Counted from the first letter of the stretch, positions 1,202 through 47,795 are shown. The stretch is 64,000 nucleotides of DNA from an uncultured Candidatus Saccharibacteria bacterium (GCA_964423885.1 CAYRGD010000004.1:8319-72318), one strand, 5' to 3'. Made by a program: numbers and translations. The notes: a model not told the origin generated them from the sequence alone.

Positions 1202-2227
1202 TTGTTACGTAACATTGATTCGTGCGAGATCGAGATCGAGATCGACAGCCTGGGGAGGCGGGCCACATTGGTGACCACGCGCCCGGATCTTGCGCACAAC
1301 GCGGCGACCCTGCTATTCGCGTGCGAACGCGAGGAGCCGGCGATCGCACCGTTCTCGCCGTCGGCCGAGCGGAAACTCATCGACGACGGGTTCGATAAAA
1401 GCCTGCGCGGCGAGTGGCGGAGCTACTGCTATGCGGTGATCCGCGAGGATGACCGCGAGGGTCTCACCGACCAACTCTTCGATCTCATGGGCGCAGAACA
1501 TCTATTGGGGCGGGCGCTCCACCTTCGTAACTGGATGACCGACCCGAACGCCTACGCTGAACGGTCGTGGCAGGTGAGCGCCTTCACGTTGCTCGCCGAG
1601 CTCGAACGGGATATCGTCCGGCTTCGGCAGCGGCTACCGGCGGGACGTCCGCAGGATGTCGACGACTTCACCCAGCAGTGTCTGTTCGGTGAAGTTGACG
1701 CGATTATCCGACAGCTGCGCAAGATCCTGCCACTCGTGGAATGGGGGATGTTTCGGCGTCGGTACGTCGAACTTGTGGGCGATGCCCGTGTCGATGCCGA
1801 GGCTGCCCAGCTCCTGACCGCAAAGGCGGCCCAGGGCCTGACCGACTGTCCAACGGCGTTCCAGCTATCCCACGGGCCGGACTTTCTGACCGTGTCACTC
1901 GTAGACGTGATTCCTGGTTGGACGGTCGTGTCCGTGCTGACGAGCCAACGGCGGCACGGCAACCTTCCCTTCTTCTACTCGGAGTCAGGGATGCGGTTCG
2001 TGGCCAAGAATCTCAATCCGCCGGGCAGGACCGGCCTAGAAGCACCGAGGGTGCCGGGCGTCCTGCGTTTCGGCGACTACGTGAAGCCTCTTGAAGAGGG
2101 CTACATGTGGCTCAAGACCAAGGCCCTCGAAACGCGGCCCGAAGCGCGTTCGTTCTGTTCGGCACCGACCAAGCAGTTCGTGAAGCTCCTCGAGGCACCG
2201 ACCGGTGCGTTCGTCGGTTTCATCTAG
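1202..2227 (+). CDS. Hypothetical protein with a TTG start. It contains a (GAGATC)x3 hexamer repeat encoding EIEIEI.
   Basis: 341-aa ORF placed between a promoter and a terminator. No recognisable motifs. Confidence 0.5.
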   Translation: MLRNIDSCEIEIEIDSLGRRATLVTTRPDLAHNAATLLFACEREEPAIAPFSPSAERKLIDDGFDKSLRGEWRSYCYAVIREDDREGLTDQLFDLMGAEHLLGRALHLRNWMTDPNAYAERSWQVSAFTLLAELERDIVRLRQRLPAGRPQDVDDFTQQCLFGEVDAIIRQLRKILPLVEWGMFRRRYVELVGDARVDAEAAQLLTAKAAQGLTDCPTAFQLSHGPDFLTVSLVDVIPGWTVVSVLTSQRRHGNLPFFYSESGMRFVAKNLNPPGRTGLEAPRVPGVLRFGDYVKPLEEGYMWLKTKALETRPEARSFCSAPTKQFVKLLEAPTGAFVGFI

Positions 2228-2320: not shown

Positions 2321-2412
2321 GGTGAGGTGGCTGAGTGGCCGAAAGCAGCGCACTGCTAATGCGTTGACCTCGTAACAGGGGTCCGTGGGTTCGAATCCCA
2401 CCCTCACCGCCA
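2321..2412 (+). tRNA. tRNA-Ser: tRNA-Ser (anticodon GCT) with a long variable arm
   Basis: GGTGAGG acceptor stem, anticodon loop CTGCTAA, long extra arm, GGTTCGAATCC T-loop and a 3' CCA. Confidence 0.85.
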
Positions 2413-2424
2413 CCGAACGAACGT

Positions 2425-2501
2425 GTTCCCGTAGCTCAGCTGGATAGAGCGTCAGCTTGCGGAGCTGAAGGTCGCAGGTTCAAATCCTGCCGGGAACGCC
2501 A
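2425..2501 (+). tRNA. tRNA-Arg: tRNA-Arg with a genome-encoded GCG anticodon (hand-folded)
   Basis: Cloverleaf: acceptor GTTCCCG/CGGGAAC, D-arm GCTCAGCTGGATAGAGC, anticodon stem TCAGC/GCTGA with loop TTGCGGA, T-loop TTCAAAT, 3' CCA. Confidence 0.7.
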
Positions 2502-2504
2502 TCT

Positions 2505-2581
2505 GTCCCTATAGCTCAGCTGGATAGAGCGTCAGCTTCCGGAGCTGAAGGCCGGGGGTTCGAATCCCTCTGGGGACGCCA
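2505..2581 (+). tRNA. tRNA-Arg: tRNA-Arg (anticodon CCG)
   Basis: Same D-arm and anticodon stem as the previous tRNA, anticodon loop TTCCGGA, T-loop TTCGAAT, 3' CCA. Confidence 0.8.
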
Positions 2582-33901: not shown

Positions 33902-35761
33902 ATGCCTGCGGACGCTGCCGTATCACCGATTTTGGAATCCCTGAACCCCGAGCAGCGGGCAGCGGCCGCCCATACCGACGGGCCGGTGCTCATTCTGGCC
34001 GGGGCAGGCTCGGGCAAGACGAAGACACTCACCCACCGCATCGCCTACCTAGTGGAACGCGGGGTCGCCCCGTACCACATCCTGGCGGTCACGTTCACCA
34101 ATAAGGCCGCCGGCGAGCTGCGCGAGCGGCTGACCGCCTTGGCGGGCGGTGTGTCGTTCCCGTGGGTCGGCACGTTCCATTCGGTCTGCGTCCGGATCCT
34201 GCGGCGCGAGATCGGCCACCTGGGCTACGAGCCGGGGTTCACGATCTACGACTCGAGCGACAGCCTCAACCTGGTCAAGCAGGCGATGGCCGAGCTCCAC
34301 ATCGATCCCAAGCAGACCAACCCGCGCACGATCCAGCACATGATCTCGGGCGCGAAGAACGAGCTTATCGGCCCCGTGCAGTACGCCAACCGGGCCGAGG
34401 GCTACGCCATGGAACAGACGGCCAAGGTCTACGAACGCTACCAGGCGGCCCTGAAGCGTGCCAACGCGGCCGACTTCGACGATCTGCTTGGGCTCACCGT
34501 GCGGCTGTTCCAGGAACATCCGCAGGTGCTCGCGGACTACCGCGAGAAGTTCAAGCACATCCTCATCGACGAGTACCAGGACACGAACCAGGTTCAGTAC
34601 CTGTTCGTGAAATTGCTGGGGAACCACGGCAACATCTGCGTGGTCGGCGACGACTACCAGGCGATCTACGGCTGGCGCGGCGCGAACTTCCGCAACATCT
34701 TGAACTTCGAACGCGACTGGCCCGAGACCACCACCGTCAAGCTCGAACAGAACTACCGGTCGACGCAGACGATCTTGGACGCGGCCGACGCGGTCATCAA
34801 GCACAACGCCCAGCGGACCGACAAGTCCCTGTGGACCGACCGGGGACAGGGCAGTCCGGTATCCGTCTACGAGGCGCTCGACGCGGTCGACGAGGCGGAT
34901 TTCCTGGTGACCGAGATCATGAGCCTGCGCCGTGAGTTCCCGAGCCTCAACCAATTCGCGGTGCTGTACCGCACCAACGCCCAGTCGCGCCTGCTCGAAG
35001 AGACGTTCCTGAAGCGCGAGCTGCCGTACCGCCTGGTCGGCGCGGTCCAGTTCTACGAGCGGAAGGAAATCAAGGACGTGCTCGCGTACCTCCGGGCGGT
35101 CGCCAACCCGACCGACCTGATTGCGTTCGAGCGCTCAGCCGGGGCGCCCAGCCGCGGGATCGGTAAGAAGGCGCTCGAACAGGTGCGGGTGCTGGGTATC
35201 GAGGCCGCCGCGGCCACGAATGCCAAGGTCAAGGCGTTCGCGGCGCTGCTTGCCGAGTTCCGCCTGTTCGCGACCGCCCATTCGGTCAACGACCTCATCG
35301 AGGAGGTGGCGGTGCGCTCGGGCTACCGCGACGCGTTGCTCGACGGCTCCGACGAGGGCGAGGGGCGGTGGGAGAACGTCAAGGAGTTGAAGTCGGTCGG
35401 CGAGGGGTATATCAGCCTGAACGAATTCCTCGAGGCGACCAGTCTGGTGGCGGATACCGACGCTTACGACCCGAGCCACGAGGCCGTGACGCTCATGACG
35501 CTCCACAACGCCAAGGGGCTCGAGTTCCCGGTGGTGTTCGTGGTCGGCATGGAGGAAAGCATCTTCCCGCACTCGCGGGCATTGACCGACCCGGCCCAGA
35601 TGGAAGAGGAGCGGCGGCTGTGCTACGTGGGCATGACGCGGGCCAAGGACCGGCTCTACCTGCTGCACGCCAACTCGCGGATCCTGTACGGCGGGATCCA
35701 GGCCAACATCCCGTCGCGGTTCCTGGGCGAGTTCCCGGCCCACCTCCGAGAGAAGCTGTAA
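33902..35761 (+). CDS. pcrA: ATP-dependent DNA helicase PcrA/UvrD (short, 619 aa)
   Basis: GAGSGKTKTLTHRIAYL motif I, DEYQDTN motif II, ..YRS.. and the C-terminal VTLMTLHNAKGLEFPVVF motif. Confidence 0.85.
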   Translation: MPADAAVSPILESLNPEQRAAAAHTDGPVLILAGAGSGKTKTLTHRIAYLVERGVAPYHILAVTFTNKAAGELRERLTALAGGVSFPWVGTFHSVCVRILRREIGHLGYEPGFTIYDSSDSLNLVKQAMAELHIDPKQTNPRTIQHMISGAKNELIGPVQYANRAEGYAMEQTAKVYERYQAALKRANAADFDDLLGLTVRLFQEHPQVLADYREKFKHILIDEYQDTNQVQYLFVKLLGNHGNICVVGDDYQAIYGWRGANFRNILNFERDWPETTTVKLEQNYRSTQTILDAADAVIKHNAQRTDKSLWTDRGQGSPVSVYEALDAVDEADFLVTEIMSLRREFPSLNQFAVLYRTNAQSRLLEETFLKRELPYRLVGAVQFYERKEIKDVLAYLRAVANPTDLIAFERSAGAPSRGIGKKALEQVRVLGIEAAAATNAKVKAFAALLAEFRLFATAHSVNDLIEEVAVRSGYRDALLDGSDEGEGRWENVKELKSVGEGYISLNEFLEATSLVADTDAYDPSHEAVTLMTLHNAKGLEFPVVFVVGMEESIFPHSRALTDPAQMEEERRLCYVGMTRAKDRLYLLHANSRILYGGIQANIPSRFLGEFPAHLREKL

Positions 35762-35949
35762 TATCTGTGGAAAACTCACGACCGGAGAATGTGTACAGCT
35801 GCTCCAACAGGAGAGAATCGGAATCTTGACACGGTTCACGAACGGCGGTATGATGGACAGGCACATTGAAAACCGGAGCGCGAACACGCAGGGAGGGGTC
35901 CGGTGCAATCATTGGCTCATAACTTCCCGTTGTGAGTCATTTTTGTGCC

Positions 35950-36043: not shown

Positions 36044-36211
36044 ATCGAGTGGACGAACGCCAGCATCTGTTGAACGGGGGTACCTGTTCGGTGGATTCAA
36101 GTGCGGTCGGCCGCTTGCCAAGGGCTTTGGCATTTTGCACGTCACATATATACAACACACTATGGACGCTGCTCGCTAAGGCCCTTTTTTCGTGTGCTAT
36201 ACTCCCACCAT

Positions 36212-37186
36212 ATGTCAGCCCGACGGACGGTTGGACTGGGGCTCGTGGCGATCGCGTGCCTCACGGGCGCGCTCGTGCGGCTGCGCGGGCACGGGCAGGC
36301 GACGGCTGCGGTGTCGGCGGCAACGGGCCGCGTTGACGGCCGCGTCCTTGGGGCGTCCGTCCGGCATGTCGGCGGGGTCGACCACGCGGTCGAGCGCTAC
36401 GTGGCGCCGCCAGGGCCGACGACCGTCGCTACGCAGCTTGCCGCGCTCGGCGTTACGCTCTATCCCGAAGACCACTTCACCGCGATACCCGACCCGTCGT
36501 TCGGCGTGGGGAGCGAGATCGAACTCGTGCGGGCGAACGCCGTGACGATCGTCGACGCCAAACATCCGGCCACCTACCGCACCTGGGCCCCGACCGTCGA
36601 GGCGTTCTTGAACGAACGGCAGGTGACGCTCGGTGCCGACGACCGGCAGGATATCCCGAACGCGACGCCGGTGACAGCCGGGCTCACGGTCGCCATCACC
36701 CGGGTCGGGATGCGCGAGGTATTCGAGGACGAACCGATCGCCTTCGCGAGCAAGACCGAATCCGACGCGACCATGGAAAAAGGCACGTCGACGGTCGTGC
36801 AGGCCGGAAAGAACGGTGTCCGCACCAAAACCTACCGCATCACGTACGAGGACGGCGAGCAGGTGAGTAAGACATTGATCAAGAATGAGGTCGCAACGGC
36901 GCCGGTCGACCAGATTGCGCGCAGGGGCACAAAGGTATTGACCTACGGCAGCGGCGAGGCGACGTGGTACGCCTGGAAGCCGGGCGGCGCGGCCCACAAC
37001 ACCCTGCCGTTCGGCACCTGCGTCCACGTCGTGAGCGTGGCGAGCGGCAAATCCGTGGACGTCACCATCAACGACCGTGGGATCCAGGGGAGTGCGGTCA
37101 TCGACCTGGACAAGGCCGCCTTCGCCGCCATTGCGCCCTTGGGCGCTGGCCGGATCAACGTCCGGCTCGAGAAGTGCTACCCGTAA
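36212..37186 (+). CDS. YabE/RpfB-like cell-wall protein with G5 and C-terminal 3D (RlpA-like double-psi barrel) domains
   Basis: Signal anchor, then a G5-like VQAGKNGVRTKTYRITYEDGEQ and a C-terminal ..WYAWKPGGAAHNTLPFGTCVHVVS..VDVTINDRG. Extended -10 TGCTATACT 8 nt upstream of the ATG. Confidence 0.7.
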   Translation: MSARRTVGLGLVAIACLTGALVRLRGHGQATAAVSAATGRVDGRVLGASVRHVGGVDHAVERYVAPPGPTTVATQLAALGVTLYPEDHFTAIPDPSFGVGSEIELVRANAVTIVDAKHPATYRTWAPTVEAFLNERQVTLGADDRQDIPNATPVTAGLTVAITRVGMREVFEDEPIAFASKTESDATMEKGTSTVVQAGKNGVRTKTYRITYEDGEQVSKTLIKNEVATAPVDQIARRGTKVLTYGSGEATWYAWKPGGAAHNTLPFGTCVHVVSVASGKSVDVTINDRGIQGSAVIDLDKAAFAAIAPLGAGRINVRLEKCYP

Positions 37187-42101: not shown

Positions 42102-42652
42102 AGGGGTGGGTTGCGGCGGCCGGGACGGCCGCGACCGTGTGTGCGTGCTGGCTTGCCATTGCCTTCGCCGTCCCGTCGTGGCACCGGCTGGTATTCCGGT
42201 TTGTGCCGGCTGACGGGCCGGTATCCAGCGAAGATCGGACTACGCTCGACCGGGGTATCGCCGGCTTTTTCATCGGCGGCCCAGCGCCCGCCGGCCTGAC
42301 CGTTACCGAACAGGACCACCTCTCGGACGTCCGATCATTCTGGCATCGGCTTGTCGTAGCGGCTGCCACGGGCCTGTGCTGGCTCATTGCTGCCCGGCCG
42401 CGTGAGGCCAGGCGGGCGCTCGCGATCATCCTTGCGGTTGGTGCTGCCAGCCTGCTCGCGTTCGGGCCGCTCTTCGTGCTCATACACCCGCTCGTCTTCC
42501 CGCAGGGAAACTGGCAGTTCAGTAGTGACGCGTTGCTCGTACAAATCTATCCGCTCGGCTTCTTCGCCTGTATCTGGGCAAGCGTCCTCGTCGTCGCAGT
42601 GGCATCGCTGGTACTCCTTGCACGAGGGCAGTCGTCCCGACCGAGGCCATGA
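42098..42652 (+). CDS. Hypothetical membrane protein (4 TM)
   Basis: Hydrophobic segments and an ATGA overlap. Confidence 0.45.
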   Translation: MKGWVAAAGTAATVCACWLAIAFAVPSWHRLVFRFVPADGPVSSEDRTTLDRGIAGFFIGGPAPAGLTVTEQDHLSDVRSFWHRLVVAAATGLCWLIAARPREARRALAIILAVGAASLLAFGPLFVLIHPLVFPQGNWQFSSDALLVQIYPLGFFACIWASVLVVAVASLVLLARGQSSRPRP

Positions 42653-43608
42653 CCCTGCTCGACGCCTTCCTCCTCGCCCTTTTCGTCCTTGCCGCTGTCG
42701 ACGGCTGGCGGACGGGTTTCCTGCTCCTCTTGGCCGACCTTGCCGCCTTCGGCCTTGGTTTGGCCTCCGCGTTTCATTTTGGCGTACCGGCGGGCGAGCT
42801 GGCGGGCCGGCTCCTGCCGATGTCAGTTGGGCTGCGGCCGTTCTTCGGCTTCGCGGTGCTGTTCCTGCTCACAGTCGGCGTGGCGCGCTTTGCGCTCCGG
42901 CCGGTCCGGCAGCGCCTGGCCGCGTTCCCGGTGCGCGATATCGGTCTCGACCGGGCGGCGGGTGCCCTCTTGAACGTCGCCAAGCAATGGCTGGCGCTCG
43001 CGGTGATCTTGAACCTGCTCCTTTTCCTGCCCGGGCTCGGTACAGCTGCCCGCGCGATCCGTGCCGCCCGCCTGGCACCGCTCTTCGTGCTCGGCCGCGC
43101 GGAGTTCGAGGCGGCGCTCGCCCGCGTGATCGCGCCGGCGGTGTACGACACGCAGGACATCCTGACCACGAAGACGATTTCCGACGTCGCGATCCCGGTC
43201 ACCGCTCCTGTCGGCACCCTGACGGACGACCGCGAGGCCGAACAGGCGCTGCTCGGGCTCTTGAACGCCGAGCGGACGAGCCGTGGCCTGGCGCCGCTTG
43301 CCTGGAGCGAGCCGCTCGCCCAGGCCGCCCGCCTGCAAAGCCGCGACATGTGGCGGCGGCAGTACTTCGCGCACGTCAATCCCGACGGCGCCGACCCGTT
43401 CGCCCGCTTGCACCAGGCCGGGATCGTCTACCTGGTCGCCGGCGAGAACCTGGCGCTCGCGCCCAGCACGCCGATCGCCCACCAGGGGCTCATGGACTCG
43501 CCCGAACACCGCGACAACATCCTGTCGCCCGAGTACCAGCAGGTCGGGATCGGCGTCATCCGCAACGGCCTCTACGGCGCGATGTTCACGCAGGAGTTCA
43601 CGAATTAA
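42649..43608 (+). CDS. CvpA-family membrane domain fused to a C-terminal CAP/SCP (YkwD-like) domain
   Basis: N-terminal MTLLDAFLLALFVLAAVDGWRTGF.. (CvpA-like, 4 TM). C-terminal ..NAERTSRGLAPL.W...LAQAAR.QS.DM....YFAH..PDG... (CAP motifs). Confidence 0.6.
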   Translation: MTLLDAFLLALFVLAAVDGWRTGFLLLLADLAAFGLGLASAFHFGVPAGELAGRLLPMSVGLRPFFGFAVLFLLTVGVARFALRPVRQRLAAFPVRDIGLDRAAGALLNVAKQWLALAVILNLLLFLPGLGTAARAIRAARLAPLFVLGRAEFEAALARVIAPAVYDTQDILTTKTISDVAIPVTAPVGTLTDDREAEQALLGLLNAERTSRGLAPLAWSEPLAQAARLQSRDMWRRQYFAHVNPDGADPFARLHQAGIVYLVAGENLALAPSTPIAHQGLMDSPEHRDNILSPEYQQVGIGVIRNGLYGAMFTQEFTN

Positions 43609-43622
43609 CGGAACGCCTCGGA

Positions 43623-43651
43623 TTGACAGCTCCGGTACCCGTCCCTATAAC
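43623..43651 (+). promoter_or_regulatory. Near-consensus sigma70 promoter: TTGACA, 17-bp spacer, TATAAC
   Basis: TTGACA at 43623-43628 and TATAAC at 43646-43651, about 38 nt upstream of the GTG at 43689, with a GAAGGGTGG SD between. Confidence 0.6.
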
Positions 43652-43688
43652 CAGGGCGTTTAACATGACGGAAGGGTGGAACAGCTAG

Positions 43689-43952
43689 GTGGGAGCAGAG
43701 CGGTTGCCAGAGGAATCGGACGACGAGGGCGATGATCCCGGCCCCGAGGATCCGGATGACGAGGAATACGACGAACCCGAAAACGACCACGATTTCAACC
43801 CAGGGGATCCTGACGAAGATGACTGGGACGACGAATGGTACGACGGCAGGCAGGACGAAGACTGGTCCGAGGAAGAACCGGATGACGAGTGGGCCGACGA
43901 CTGCGTCGACGACGAGGACGGGTGGTATCCCGACGACGATCCTGATGACTAG
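43689..43952 (+). CDS. Extremely acidic small protein (87 aa, over half D/E, interspersed W/Y); GTG start
   Basis: Translation: ..EESDDEGDDPGPEDPDDEEYDEPENDHD..DEDDWDDEWYDG..DEDWSEEEPDDEWADDCVDDEDGWYPDDDPDD. Confidence 0.5.
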   Translation: MGAERLPEESDDEGDDPGPEDPDDEEYDEPENDHDFNPGDPDEDDWDDEWYDGRQDEDWSEEEPDDEWADDCVDDEDGWYPDDDPDD

Positions 43953-44008
43953 CAAAGAGCCTCCGGGCTCTTTTTTTGTGCCCGAAACCAGGCTATACTC
44001 CCTCGGTT

Positions 44009-45094
44009 ATGCCCACAGAGAAGCTGTTAGTCGGGATGAGTGGCGGCGTAGACTCGTCGCTCGCGGCGGCGTTGCTCGTCGAGGCCGGCCACGAGGTGGT
44101 CGGCGTCTACCTGCGCGCCTGGGACGACGCGACCGCGCCGTTCCTGAAAGGGTACTGCCCATGGGAAGACGACATCGCCGACGCCCGGCGCGTCGCCGCC
44201 ACGCTCGGTATTCCGTTTGCGGTCATCGACGTCCGTGCCGCGTACCGCGAGCGGGTGGTGGCTGCGCTCGAGGCCGAGTACGCCGCCGGCCGGACCCCGA
44301 ACCCGGATATCCTGTGCAACCGCGAGATGAAGTTCGGCATCCTGCTTGAGCTTGCCAAACAAGAAGGGTACGACGGCGTGGCGACTGGCCACTACGCCCG
44401 GATCCTCGATGTGGACGGGGAGCTGCAACTGCATCGCGCGGCCGATACTCATAAGGACCAGAGCTACTTCCTCTGGACACTCACGGACGAGCAGCTGCCG
44501 TTCATCCGTTTTCCCATCGGCCATCTGACGAAGGCGCACGTCCGTGCCGAGGCGGCCGCGCGCGGCATACCGGTCGCTGCGAAGCCGGACAGCCAGGGCG
44601 TCTGCTTCCTGGGGCCGGTCTCGTTGCGCGACTACCTCAAGGAGCGATTGAAGACCGAGCCGGGCACTGTGCGGACTGAAGCCGGTACGGCGATCGGCCG
44701 GCACGACGGCGCGGCGCTCTACACCATGGGCCAGCGGCACGGCTTTACGGTCGAGGGCGCGTACCCCGGCCCGCACTATGTCGTCGAGCGCCGCTTGGCC
44801 ACCAACGAGCTCGTGGTCGCCCCGGTGCCACCTCAGAGCGCTCGCATTACGCTCGACGCGTGCTCGTGGATCGCGCGACCGGCCGACGGCAGCACCATCG
44901 GCATCCGGATCCGGCACGGCCAGGATCCCCAGCCGGCTCTCATCCGGTTCTCAGGATCGGCTGCCATCATCGATCCCGTGGACGCGCAGACCGCTGTTGC
45001 GCCCGGACAGTCGGTGGTATGCTCGCACGGATCACGCATCCTAGGCGGAGGTATCGTTGGCACTGCGACGCCGGTTCCTACCCGGCACCCTTAG
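44009..45094 (+). CDS. mnmA: tRNA-specific 2-thiouridylase MnmA
   Basis: VGMSGGVDSS PP-loop and the catalytic Cys region. TATACT 9 nt upstream of the ATG. Confidence 0.9.
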   Translation: MPTEKLLVGMSGGVDSSLAAALLVEAGHEVVGVYLRAWDDATAPFLKGYCPWEDDIADARRVAATLGIPFAVIDVRAAYRERVVAALEAEYAAGRTPNPDILCNREMKFGILLELAKQEGYDGVATGHYARILDVDGELQLHRAADTHKDQSYFLWTLTDEQLPFIRFPIGHLTKAHVRAEAAARGIPVAAKPDSQGVCFLGPVSLRDYLKERLKTEPGTVRTEAGTAIGRHDGAALYTMGQRHGFTVEGAYPGPHYVVERRLATNELVVAPVPPQSARITLDACSWIARPADGSTIGIRIRHGQDPQPALIRFSGSAAIIDPVDAQTAVAPGQSVVCSHGSRILGGGIVGTATPVPTRHP

Positions 45095-46271: not shown

Positions 46272-47051
46272 ATGCCAACCGATCCAAAGACGATTCAGTG
46301 GTACAACGAGCACGCCGACGAGTACACGGAGCATGTCCGTAGCAAGGGACAGTCGGTCTACCATTCCCTGTACGAAAAGCCGGCAATGCGGGCGCTGCTT
46401 CCAGATCTCGATGGCAAGCAGGTATTGAGTATTGGCTGCGGGCCAGGCGAGGATGCGGCGCACCTGCAATCAGCGGGCGCAGCGAAATCGGTTGGGATCG
46501 ATATCTCCGAACAGCTAATCGTGCGAGCACGAGCGGCGCATCCTGCTTGTGAGTTTCACGTGATGGATATGGAGCAGCTCGCGTTTACGGATGCATCGTT
46601 CGATGTTGCGTACGCCAGTTTGGCGCTCCACTATTTGGAGGACTGGTCGCAGGTGTTTACCGAGGTGTATCGCGTACTTCGGCCCGGCGGATCGTTTCTG
46701 TTCTCGTGCGGGCACCCAACCTTTACGGCTATGGCGATCACCGAAGATACGGCAGAGCGGCGAGCGCGGATGCTTGGGGTGGTAAAGCACCCAACAACAA
46801 AGACCCGCGATATCGTCGGCGACTACTTCCGGCGGCGGATTGATGACACGGGCGGCGAGCAGATGGATGTTACTACCTGGCACAAACCGCTTACCGAGAT
46901 TGCCGCCGAGGCGACCGGCGCCGGCTTTGTAATAACCGCCCTTGTCGAGCCAACGCCACTGCCAGCAATGCAGTCCACCAATCCCGAGCAGTACAAGATG
47001 CTCTCGGCAATCCCGTTCTTTCTCATTCTAAAACTTGAGAAGCAGCAATGA
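46272..47051 (+). CDS. Class I SAM-dependent methyltransferase (Methyltransf_11/UbiE-like small-molecule type)
   Basis: VLSIGCGPGEDA motif I and a ..LRPGGSFLF post-II motif. Lower GC than the flanks. No DNA-MTase motifs. Confidence 0.75.
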   Translation: MPTDPKTIQWYNEHADEYTEHVRSKGQSVYHSLYEKPAMRALLPDLDGKQVLSIGCGPGEDAAHLQSAGAAKSVGIDISEQLIVRARAAHPACEFHVMDMEQLAFTDASFDVAYASLALHYLEDWSQVFTEVYRVLRPGGSFLFSCGHPTFTAMAITEDTAERRARMLGVVKHPTTKTRDIVGDYFRRRIDDTGGEQMDVTTWHKPLTEIAAEATGAGFVITALVEPTPLPAMQSTNPEQYKMLSAIPFFLILKLEKQQ

Positions 47052-47144: not shown

Positions 47145-47795
47145 TCATGTACCCTGGATCGCAATCGTGACTAATCGGTACCCAGCTCCGTTGGCTCGTT
47201 TGGAAGGCCCTTTTTTACAGATACCTGCGTTGCAGAGCTTTTTTATCTGACCCAAGACGGTGGTCCGTTTTATTCCGATACCACGAGCAAGCTCTGCCGA
47301 GCTTACGAGCTTGGATTGCGTTGATAGGTATTCCACGATCTCTTTTGAGATATGGAACGTGCCGAATCGTGGCAATCCGGATAAGGGGTGCGGGATATAC
47401 GACGCTTCCGCTTCGATCTCGATGCCGAGCAACGAAAATTGATTCGGGGTGCAGTTCCGGTCAATCAATAGTATTTGTCCAAGTGTATGGAGAGCGCGTC
47501 CAAGGCTGTCGGTAACGACCTCGCTTGCGTCCTGAACAATGATCGGGATTCTCCGTTCGATACTCGATTGACTGAGTCGCAGAAGATTGACTACCAGATG
47601 ATCCGCATAGCGCGAGGACAAGCAGTCGACTTGCTTGAAGTTGAGATAGAGGGCTTGATCTGTTGCTAACGCTTTCATATGCCGTTCCTGAATGCCTGGC
47701 ATGATCGTAGAAAGCGTGATATCTGACGGTGTTCTTCGCTTGGCGGGATCAGCATAGATCCCCTCCGGCAAGAGGAATACAATTTCATCAACCAT
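47145..47795 (-). CDS. Hypothetical regulator: N-terminal alpha/beta domain (..LSSRYADHLVVNLL.., possibly STAS-like/DUF4325-like) plus a C-terminal winged-helix HTH
   Basis: C-terminal ..SSAELARGIGIKRTTVLGQIKKLCNAGICKK....GYRL (wHTH). Low GC. Paralog of 47995..48642. Confidence 0.5.
   Translation of the reverse strand: MVDEIVFLLPEGIYADPAKRRTPSDITLSTIMPGIQERHMKALATDQALYLNFKQVDCLSSRYADHLVVNLLRLSQSSIERRIPIIVQDASEVVTDSLGRALHTLGQILLIDRNCTPNQFSLLGIEIEAEASYIPHPLSGLPRFGTFHISKEIVEYLSTQSKLVSSAELARGIGIKRTTVLGQIKKLCNAGICKKGPSKRANGAGYRLVTIAIQGT

Follow-up and report, generated by a model that had tools for sequence, protein, structure and literature searches.

Phages and conjugative elements encode Ocr (gp0.3 of phage T7) and ArdA, which fold as helical dimers, and the acidic C-terminal tail of RNA polymerase delta and region 1.1 of sigma-70 are disordered, Asp/Glu-rich segments that act on RNA polymerase as competitors of nucleic acid. 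In DSS1 and CSNAP, which are small, acidic and disordered, binding depends on conserved aromatic residues with acidic neighbours, and DSS1 has been cited as a DNA mimic (PMC8442969). Both are eukaryotic and 57–70 residues long, and DSS1/Sem1 acts as a DNA mimic with BRCA2 and RPA. Among bacterial proteins, Escherichia coli MsyB has been reported as an inhibitor of HU (bioRxiv 10.1101/2025.02.25.640118), and Neisseria DMP12 is an HU-binding DNA mimic. At the level of translation, N-terminal sequences rich in Asp, Glu and Pro (D/E/P) abort protein synthesis in E. coli, and MgtL uses one such sequence as a sensor (bioRxiv 10.1101/2021.02.02.429294). Here we analysed a 64,000-nucleotide stretch of DNA (hereafter the window) from an uncultured Candidatus Saccharibacteria bacterium (GCA_964423885.1 CAYRGD010000004.1:8319-72318) and describe an open reading frame (ORF) for an 87-residue, hyper-acidic protein that lies between the gene for a CvpA-CAP fusion protein and mnmA. 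Expression signals conserved in a close relative, and a largely synonymous pattern of substitutions between the two, show that the ORF is a real gene, and we tentatively propose that its product is a disordered mimic of nucleic acid.

The acidic protein resembles DSS1 and CSNAP in its small size, in its predicted disorder, in its acidic-aromatic pattern (DDW, DEW, EDW) and in an expected extended or polyproline II-like conformation (PMC8442969). It differs from them in being bacterial and in carrying about twice the charge density, with a net charge per residue (NCPR) of −0.53 compared to magnitudes of 0.31 and 0.25, and from DSS1/Sem1 (PF05160) in having no sequence or profile match and no predicted C-terminal helix. 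Like MsyB and DMP12 it is a chromosomal, stand-alone, small and acidic bacterial protein, and like them it would act on a basic DNA-binding protein. Those two proteins, however, are folded and moderately acidic, and share no detected sequence similarity with it. Because no profile or sequence match was found, we treat DSS1, CSNAP and MsyB as analogies of mechanism and not as relatives. With Ocr and ArdA it has in common a small size, acidity and a proposed imitation of the phosphate backbone, but it lacks a profile match, a predicted fold and a mobile-element context, and so falls outside that group on each of the three counts by which membership was judged. The delta tail and sigma-70 region 1.1 are likewise long disordered acidic segments of comparable length, although they belong to larger proteins with folded domains, whereas the acidic ORF is free-standing and has no such domain. 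As in MgtL, a D/E/P-rich stretch begins a few residues past the start codon. The differences from MgtL are the length of 87 codons, the conserved peptide, the absence of a detected alternative leader structure, the stand-alone terminator and a next gene with its own −10 box. The arrangement also differs from a type II toxin–antitoxin pair with DUF2103, since no DUF2103 gene adjoins the ORF in the window and the two do not obligately co-occur among relatives.

The acidic reading frame, its signals and its conservation

The ORF starts with GTG, stops with TAG and occupies the 400-nt gap between cvpA-CAP and mnmA (coordinates in Table 1). Its product contains 31 Asp, 17 Glu, 10 Pro, 6 Gly, 5 Trp and 3 Tyr residues and 2 Lys plus Arg, such that acidic residues make up 48 of 87 positions (55%) and the net charge is −46 (NCPR as given above). 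A first-pass annotation had described an 87-residue protein, more than half Asp/Glu, interspersed with Trp/Tyr motifs, devoid of a hydrophobic core and placed behind a TTGACA-17-TATAAC promoter, and this description was borne out. The motifs DDW, DEW, EDW, DEW and GWY are all present, residues suited to a core (Ala, Val, Leu, Ile, Met, Phe, Trp or Cys) number 12 of 87, five of them Trp, and both promoter hexamers were located ahead of the ORF. Residues 8–42 (EESDDEGDDPGPEDPDDEEYDEPENDHDFNPGDPD) are almost all Asp, Glu or Pro, and this run begins 7 residues past the start codon.

Such acidity is rare in its surroundings. The products of the flanking genes contain 5–14% Asp plus Glu, compared to 55% in the acidic protein, and nowhere else in the 64-kb window did a credible ORF reach 45% over any 30 residues, in a scan that took in six loci of the clade as well as the window. 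The same level over 40 residues was reached by only two proteins, both larger and unrelated, in ~1.4 Mb of sequence from 160 mnmA-based Patescibacteria-type loci, which were scanned separately. The ORF contains one weak tandem repeat, of 12 nt and 2.5 copies at 43884..43913, and slippage of a tandem repeat was rejected as its origin, since this sole repeat is weak.

The promoter of the acidic ORF agrees with the consensus at 11 of 12 positions. The first-pass annotation had called it the only near-perfect promoter in the window, which proved incorrect, as two further sites also score 11/12, at 35826 (TTGACA-17-TATGAT) and at 1123 (TTGACA-18-TATACT). Three matches of this quality compare to 0.04 expected in the window by chance, so all three sites are probably real. 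At the other end, an intrinsic terminator, absent from the first-pass annotation, starts 1 nt past the stop codon, with a G+C-rich hairpin (43954..43973) followed by seven T. Since promoter and terminator bracket the ORF on the + strand, they would give it a transcription unit of its own. Judged by its sequence, 43623..43980 is a monocistronic unit composed of a sigma-70-type promoter, a Shine-Dalgarno-like box, a GTG start, 87 codons and an intrinsic terminator.

In a GC-rich genome, an ORF of 87 codons means little by itself, and longer spurious ORFs are common in the window, including one of 116 residues antisense to the acidic segment and one of 205 residues in its +1 frame. Conservation therefore decides. 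Useful relatives were found through homologues of the adjacent CvpA-CAP fusion protein (45–66% identity), the named ones of which belong to Candidatus Berkelbacteria, and by then reading their contigs. The closest relative found, L168 (64% GC, CvpA-CAP 66% identical), has the same gene order as the window: cvpA-CAP, an acidic ORF of 106 residues and mnmA. In the DNA alignment, TTGACA and TATAAC are both kept around a diverged spacer of 18 nt, the 5′ untranslated region (UTR) and the Shine-Dalgarno-like box are conserved, the start codons, both GTG, are aligned, and the terminator stem is identical, with the difference confined to the loop. An alternative TTG start at 43704 would sit within the N-terminal stretch that is conserved with L168.

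The substitutions themselves point to selection on the sense frame. A block of 28 codons, DDPGPEDPDDEEYDEPENDHDFNP(G/D)DPD, is common to the window and L168; 20 of its codons are identical, 7 differ synonymously and 1 differs non-synonymously. Base differences in this core number 0, 1 and 8 at the first, second and third codon positions, a bias with a chance of ~1 in 1000 if codon positions were equivalent (by our own arithmetic). Over the flanking genes, the same comparison gave 26 synonymous and 20 non-synonymous changes in the last 121 codons of cvpA-CAP, and 56 and 22, respectively, in the first 172 codons of mnmA. By these counts the acidic core is at least as constrained, in the sense frame, as cvpA-CAP and mnmA. 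The indels between the window and L168 preserve the frame, and one of them is a basic insert of 28 codons that follows the N-terminal ERLP(E/G)E in L168. Because L168 keeps the gene order, the signals, the GTG, the stem and a synonymous third-position pattern, these comparisons show that the acidic ORF is a real gene, under purifying selection in this frame and with conserved expression signals. The conservation on which the first-pass annotation had staked the ORF is thus found, in the retained promoter hexamers as well as in the codons.

Two overlapping frames were dismissed because of the substitution pattern and of stop codons in relatives: the 205-residue shadow ORF in the +1 frame and the Val/Ile/Phe/Pro-rich antisense ORF of 116 residues (43605..43955, − strand). 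A gene caller could take the latter for a membrane protein.

Relatives of the acidic gene in a variable slot

Database searches with the acidic protein were uniformly empty. No Pfam family was matched at E ≤ 0.01 or even at E ≤ 10, and no PHROGs family at E ≤ 1, in profile searches whose composition-bias filters lower sensitivity for such acidic sequences. PADLOC and the PDB gave no match, tblastn found no relative in 50,697 phage records, none was present in IMG/VR, and neither a word-indexed search of 5.8 billion proteins nor phmmer against 1.84 billion representatives returned a match. The acidic ORFs of L168 and of two further relatives introduced below, L162 and L165, were absent from a collection of 15 billion proteins by exact look-up with either Met or Val as the first residue. 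As these ORFs are called genes at their loci and are nevertheless missing from the collection, empty searches of large protein sets do not amount to absence of the protein. Exact look-ups of the window's own acidic protein, mnmA and CvpA-CAP led to no indexed contig. Scans of genome and metagenome collections based on mnmA returned relatives only 36–47% identical, which are too distant to be informative. No acidic ORF was found near mnmA in 80 genome-collection loci, the set covered by this neighbour check, which did not extend individually to the 80 metagenome loci. As far as these searches reach, the acidic protein belongs to no described family, while its class, that of small acidic disordered proteins, is already known.

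Hyper-acidic ORFs of 25–87 residues were also present in the cvpA-mnmA slot of three more distant relatives, L162, L165 and L167 (Table 1). Each of these closes its unit as the last cistron, with a terminator after 0–4 nt and then a new promoter-like box. Across all five loci with an acidic ORF, the stop codon lies 0–4 nt from the 5′ arm of the terminator, and in four of the five ORFs the acidic run starts within 4–8 residues of the start codon. This distribution indicates that the acidic gene is an accessory gene confined to a small, high-GC clade of Patescibacteria (the Candidate Phyla Radiation, CPR) near Candidatus Berkelbacteria.

The slot also contains other genes in the clade, namely a GH5 cellulase (L163 and L164), an uncharacterised protein of 390 residues (L161 and L167) or, on an ENA contig (contig of P0008), a hydrolase together with an HTH_3/Gp49 (HigBA-like) pair. 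The interval from cvpA-CAP to mnmA is, by its gene content, a hot spot of accessory genes across the clade. A −10-like box lies 20–45 nt past the cvpA-CAP stop codon in all relatives. A protein of 109–112 residues is encoded 3′ of the acidic ORF and its terminator in L162 (5712..6050) and L165 (5710..6039); the two copies share 35% identity (E = 5e-15), have no Pfam match and have no counterpart that was found in the window.

In two of the relatives the acidic ORF directly follows a small basic gene. The ORF of L162 overlaps the end of this gene (product isoelectric point, pI, 11.6) by 14 nt. In L167 (5201..5345), 25 acidic codons lie in frame with the basic gene (pI 10.6) after TAA and two codons, an arrangement that would link the basic domain to an acidic tail, either by stop-codon read-through or as a fused gene recently split by a nonsense mutation. 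The basic neighbour belongs to DUF2103 (PF09876; E = 4e-5 for the L167 copy and 3e-5 for the L161 copy). A DUF2103-like domain has been put forward as an effector domain of Menshen NsnC proteins, and a link of DUF2103 with type III CRISPR loci has also been described (PMC12065111). The adjacency in L162 and L167 suggests a pair made of a basic protein and an acidic partner. A profile search found an acidic extension on none of 49 DUF2103 homologues (79–117 residues). The AlphaFold2 model of DUF2103 was confident (predicted local distance difference test, pLDDT, 83) and had no informative neighbour in the PDB (best E 0.07). The gene 5′ of the L165 acidic ORF is not detectably DUF2103 (hhalign probability 0.2%). 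The acidic ORF occurs without DUF2103 in L165 as well as in L168 and the window. In the window it is served by a separate promoter just past cvpA-CAP and lacks an adjoining, co-transcribed DUF2103 partner.

Disorder and proposed function of the acidic protein

In a charge-hydropathy plot the acidic protein falls far into the disordered region. Prolines recur every 3–7 residues in the conserved core, a spacing that suggests an extended chain. Structure prediction, which had been named as a check in the first-pass annotation, yielded no fold: the single-sequence AlphaFold2 model had a pLDDT of 56.7 and a predicted template modelling score of 0.12, and contained no secondary structure according to DSSP. 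The protein is thus predicted to be fully disordered.

The transcript was no better candidate for a fold. It folded worse than 97 of 100 shuffled sequences (z = +1.69) and matched no Rfam family at the gathering threshold. The sole sub-threshold match, STnc130, fell on the minus strand of the terminator hairpin (35 bits compared to a gathering score of 55). Neither the minimum free energy (MFE) fold nor the centroid fold contained an alternative pairing to the terminator arm. With less structure than the shuffles and no Rfam match, a structured RNA is unsupported, and we rejected it.

The reading we favour, tentatively, is that the product is a disordered polyanion that binds basic, nucleic-acid-binding protein surfaces by imitating nucleic acid, by analogy with the systems described above. 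The protein, presumably cytoplasmic and with no signal peptide, would carry a charge of about −46 and would bind in an extended conformation to a basic surface of one or more partner proteins. Its Asp and Glu carboxylates would take the place of phosphates, with Tyr, Phe and Trp as anchor points, and it could serve as a competitive nucleic-acid mimic, a decoy or a charge chaperone, in the manner of DSS1/Sem1, MsyB or prothymosin. The Pro-rich core (residues 15–42, with Pro, Tyr and Phe) may provide partner specificity, while the variable, Trp-rich acidic tail may add multivalent electrostatic avidity. In L162 and L167, a candidate partner is the basic DUF2103 protein encoded immediately 5′. 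The earlier suggestion of a DNA mimic therefore survives in part. A polyanionic mimic is still the most economical class for the protein, while the assignment to Ocr/ArdA, or to any described anti-restriction, DNA-mimic or defence family, is not upheld by Pfam, PHROGs or PADLOC, none of which gave a match.

As a bona fide gene, under purifying selection and with conserved expression signals, the ORF provides, at 55% Asp/Glu, a candidate bacterial polyanion of the DSS1 or prothymosin kind. Patescibacteria have very small genomes with many unannotated small genes, and routine annotation drops or misses low-complexity ORFs. Should a partner be found (HU, SSB, RNA polymerase or DUF2103), a disordered type would join the short list of bacterial nucleic-acid mimics. 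The gene also poses a puzzle of translation, namely how the ribosome of a reduced genome passes an N-terminal D/E/P run of a kind that aborts translation in E. coli.

Several observations weigh against this proposal or against the gene model on which it is built. A strict promoter scan rejects the −10 box at 43646, which has C in place of the usually invariant final T. The low AlphaFold2 confidence is weak evidence of disorder, because no alignment was used. The yield of full-length protein is uncertain, given the N-terminal D/E/P-rich run and what such runs do in E. coli. As for the candidate partner, a tblastn search of the 64-kb window for DUF2103 homologues came back empty (best E 0.54), and L161, L169 and L170 have DUF2103 but no acidic ORF, so the pairing is not obligatory. 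Finally, the multiple alignment of the five acidic ORFs is unreliable outside the window/L168 pair. Because of this ambiguity we claim only position, composition and the acidic-aromatic pattern for L162, L165 and L167, whose ORFs appear related to that of the window by position and composition and not by residue-level homology.

The same charge could act without specificity, as a buffer of Mg2+, Ca2+ or polyamines or as a ‘Hero-like’ solubility shield with no defined partner, which we consider unlikely. The extreme charge density would fit such a role, as would the freedom of the C-terminal half, which varies in length and sequence among relatives while keeping its composition, and the conserved promoter, which suggests high expression. 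However, 27 of the 28 core residues are identical in L168, with DNA changes that are nearly all synonymous, which argues for a sequence-specific interaction rather than bulk charge, and aromatic residues would be purposeless in a pure ion buffer.

We find it rather more doubtful that the acidic protein serves as antidote to, or regulatory partner of, a basic, DUF2103-type effector in a toxin–antitoxin-like system, orphaned in the window by loss of the effector. The overlapping or nearly fused genes of L162 and L167 are consistent with this, as are the proposal of a DUF2103-like domain as a Menshen effector (PMC12065111) and the other accessory genes of the slot, including the HTH_3/Gp49 pair. 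Against it, DUF2103 stands alone in three relatives (L161, L169 and L170) and the acidic ORF in three loci (the window, L168 and L165). None of the 49 DUF2103 homologues carries an acidic extension, PADLOC gave no match, the DUF2103 model has no informative structural neighbour, and the toxicity of DUF2103 is only putative. Moreover, in an orphan antidote one would not anticipate a conserved consensus promoter and purifying selection on the core.

An improbable third alternative places the function of the ORF in cis, ahead of the gene for MnmA, an enzyme that thiolates tRNA-Glu at the wobble base. As a leader of the MgtL type, the D/E/P nascent chain would destabilise the ribosome in dependence on Mg2+, on the state of the ribosome or possibly on tRNA-Glu modification, and would thereby set read-through into mnmA: continued transcription would depend on whether or not a ribosome arrives at the stop codon, which stands 1 nt from the terminator stem. 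This is compatible with the 17 Glu codons of the ORF and the action of MnmA on tRNA-Glu, with the closeness of stop codon and terminator in all five loci, with an mnmA that has no Shine-Dalgarno sequence and an ATG 10 nt past a conserved TATACT, and with the near-exclusive D/E/P composition of residues 8–42, a class that aborts translation in E. coli (bioRxiv 10.1101/2021.02.02.429294). On the other side, the ORF has 87 codons compared to 17 in MgtL, and the sequence of the peptide, beyond its composition, is conserved with L168. Moreover, the 28-residue basic insert ahead of the acidic run in L168 should suppress destabilisation (bioRxiv 10.1101/2021.02.02.429294). The gene that comes next differs from relative to relative, with that of the 109–112-residue protein in L162 and L165, and is preceded by promoter-like boxes of its own. 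The fold offers no alternative antiterminator pairing, and Asp codons, which are independent of MnmA, outnumber the Glu codons, while Lys codons are absent.

A combination of cis and trans functions seems to us quite improbable: the ORF would be a dual-purpose element of the CPR clade, in which hard-to-translate D/E/P runs sense the ribosome, Mg2+ or tRNA-Glu thiolation and tune read-through into an mnmA without Shine-Dalgarno sequence, while completed chains serve as a polyanionic decoy. If true, it would be the first long, sequence-conserved sensor of ribosome destabilisation, and the first described outside Proteobacteria.

An anti-restriction DNA mimic of the Ocr/ArdA type, which would block type I restriction-modification enzymes, is in our view very improbable. 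A small, strongly negative protein from a slot that is variable among relatives would suit such a role. However, neither Ocr (PF08684) nor ArdA (PF07275) was matched among Pfam and PHROGs profiles at E up to 1–10, and there are no phage or viral relatives. The gene is chromosomal, has housekeeping neighbours and is vertically retained in L168, and no fold is predicted for its product, whereas Ocr and ArdA are folded.

There is only the slightest probability that the locus holds no functional protein gene, the ORF having arisen by chance in GC-rich GA-repeat DNA or the real gene being the antisense frame (43605..43955, 116 residues, Val/Ile/Phe-rich). Spurious ORFs longer than 100 residues are common in this 66% GC window, and the antisense frame in codon register with the acidic ORF is open both here and in L162, with a third-position GC content (GC3) of 0.81, nearer to that of the genome than the sense value of 0.705. 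However, this openness arises because the sense frame has almost no Leu or Ser codons, only one core change is synonymous in the antisense frame (the others being replacements that include W→R and P→V, by our own translation), the frame is interrupted by two stops in L165 and one in L168, and the promoter, Shine-Dalgarno-like box, start and terminator are all conserved on the + strand.

Feature coordinates and neighbouring genes

Table 1 Features of the acidic gene and its neighbours, with acidic ORFs of three more distant relatives. Positions count from the first nucleotide of the window; D+E, Asp plus Glu.
Feature	Position	Strand	Remarks
CvpA-CAP fusion gene	42649..43608	+	5′ neighbour of the acidic ORF
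−35 hexamer TTGACA	43623..43628	+	Kept in L168 despite the diverged spacer
−10 hexamer TATAAC	43646..43651	+	17-nt spacer; final T replaced by C; within block CCCTATAACCAGGGC, identical in L168
Shine-Dalgarno-like box GGAAGGGTGG	43670..43679	+	9 nt 5′ of the start codon, in conserved 5′ UTR; aligned box in L168 is GAAAGGTGGGG
Coding sequence, 87-residue hyper-acidic protein	43689..43952	+	GTG aligns with GTG of L168; N-terminal ERLP(E/G)E common to both
Conserved core, residues 15–42, DDPGPEDPDDEEYDEPENDHDFNPGDPD	43731..43814	+	27/28 residues identical to L168
Variable acidic-aromatic C-terminal half (DDW, DEW, EDW, DEW, GWY)	43815..43949	+	Pattern kept; length and sequence vary by in-frame indels in L168, L162 and L165
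Intrinsic terminator	43954..43980	+	8-bp stem AAAGAGCC/GGCTCTTT, loop TCCG, then T7; −12.9 kcal/mol; in centroid of whole-transcript fold
mnmA	44009..45094	+	3′ neighbour of the acidic ORF
L162 acidic ORF			87 residues; 61% D+E
L165 acidic ORF			59 residues; 47% D+E
L167 acidic ORF			25 residues; MRWAEDEDDPGEEEDDDEDLDDFDD; EDDPG motif common with the window protein

Over most of its length the window has a GC content of 62–70%. The acidic gene lies in a run of housekeeping genes on the + strand, between 39.9 and 46.3 kb, that comprises metG, tatD, a Lit-family gene, the CvpA-CAP fusion gene, mnmA and the gene for a C-terminal processing peptidase. The ATG of mnmA (44009) has no Shine-Dalgarno sequence and stands 10 nt past a TATACT box that is conserved in L168 (segment 43994..44011 of the window), and because of these two features the mnmA transcript may be leaderless or nearly so.

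Beyond the peptidase gene, GC content dips to 0.547 in the 46–48 kb bin of the window, which contains a class I S-adenosylmethionine (SAM) methyltransferase gene (46272..47051, GC3 0.67) and, on the − strand, a gene for a winged-helix helix-turn-helix (HTH) protein (47145..47795, GC3 0.54). Since rplI directly follows the peptidase gene in L162, L163 and L165, the segment 46272..47795 looks like a recent insertion.

The other two promoters with 11/12 matches precede uncharacterised ORFs. The one at 35826 lies 3′ of a UvrD/PcrA-like helicase gene (33902..35761) and several hundred nucleotides 5′ of a large ORF (36101..37186, + strand), and the long untranslated leader that follows it matched no Rfam family at gathering score. 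The promoter at 1123 (+ strand) lies 5′ of an ORF of 341 residues (1202..2227), itself followed on its 3′ side by a cluster of tRNA-Ser(GCT), tRNA-Arg(GCG) and tRNA-Arg(CCG) genes at 2321..2581.

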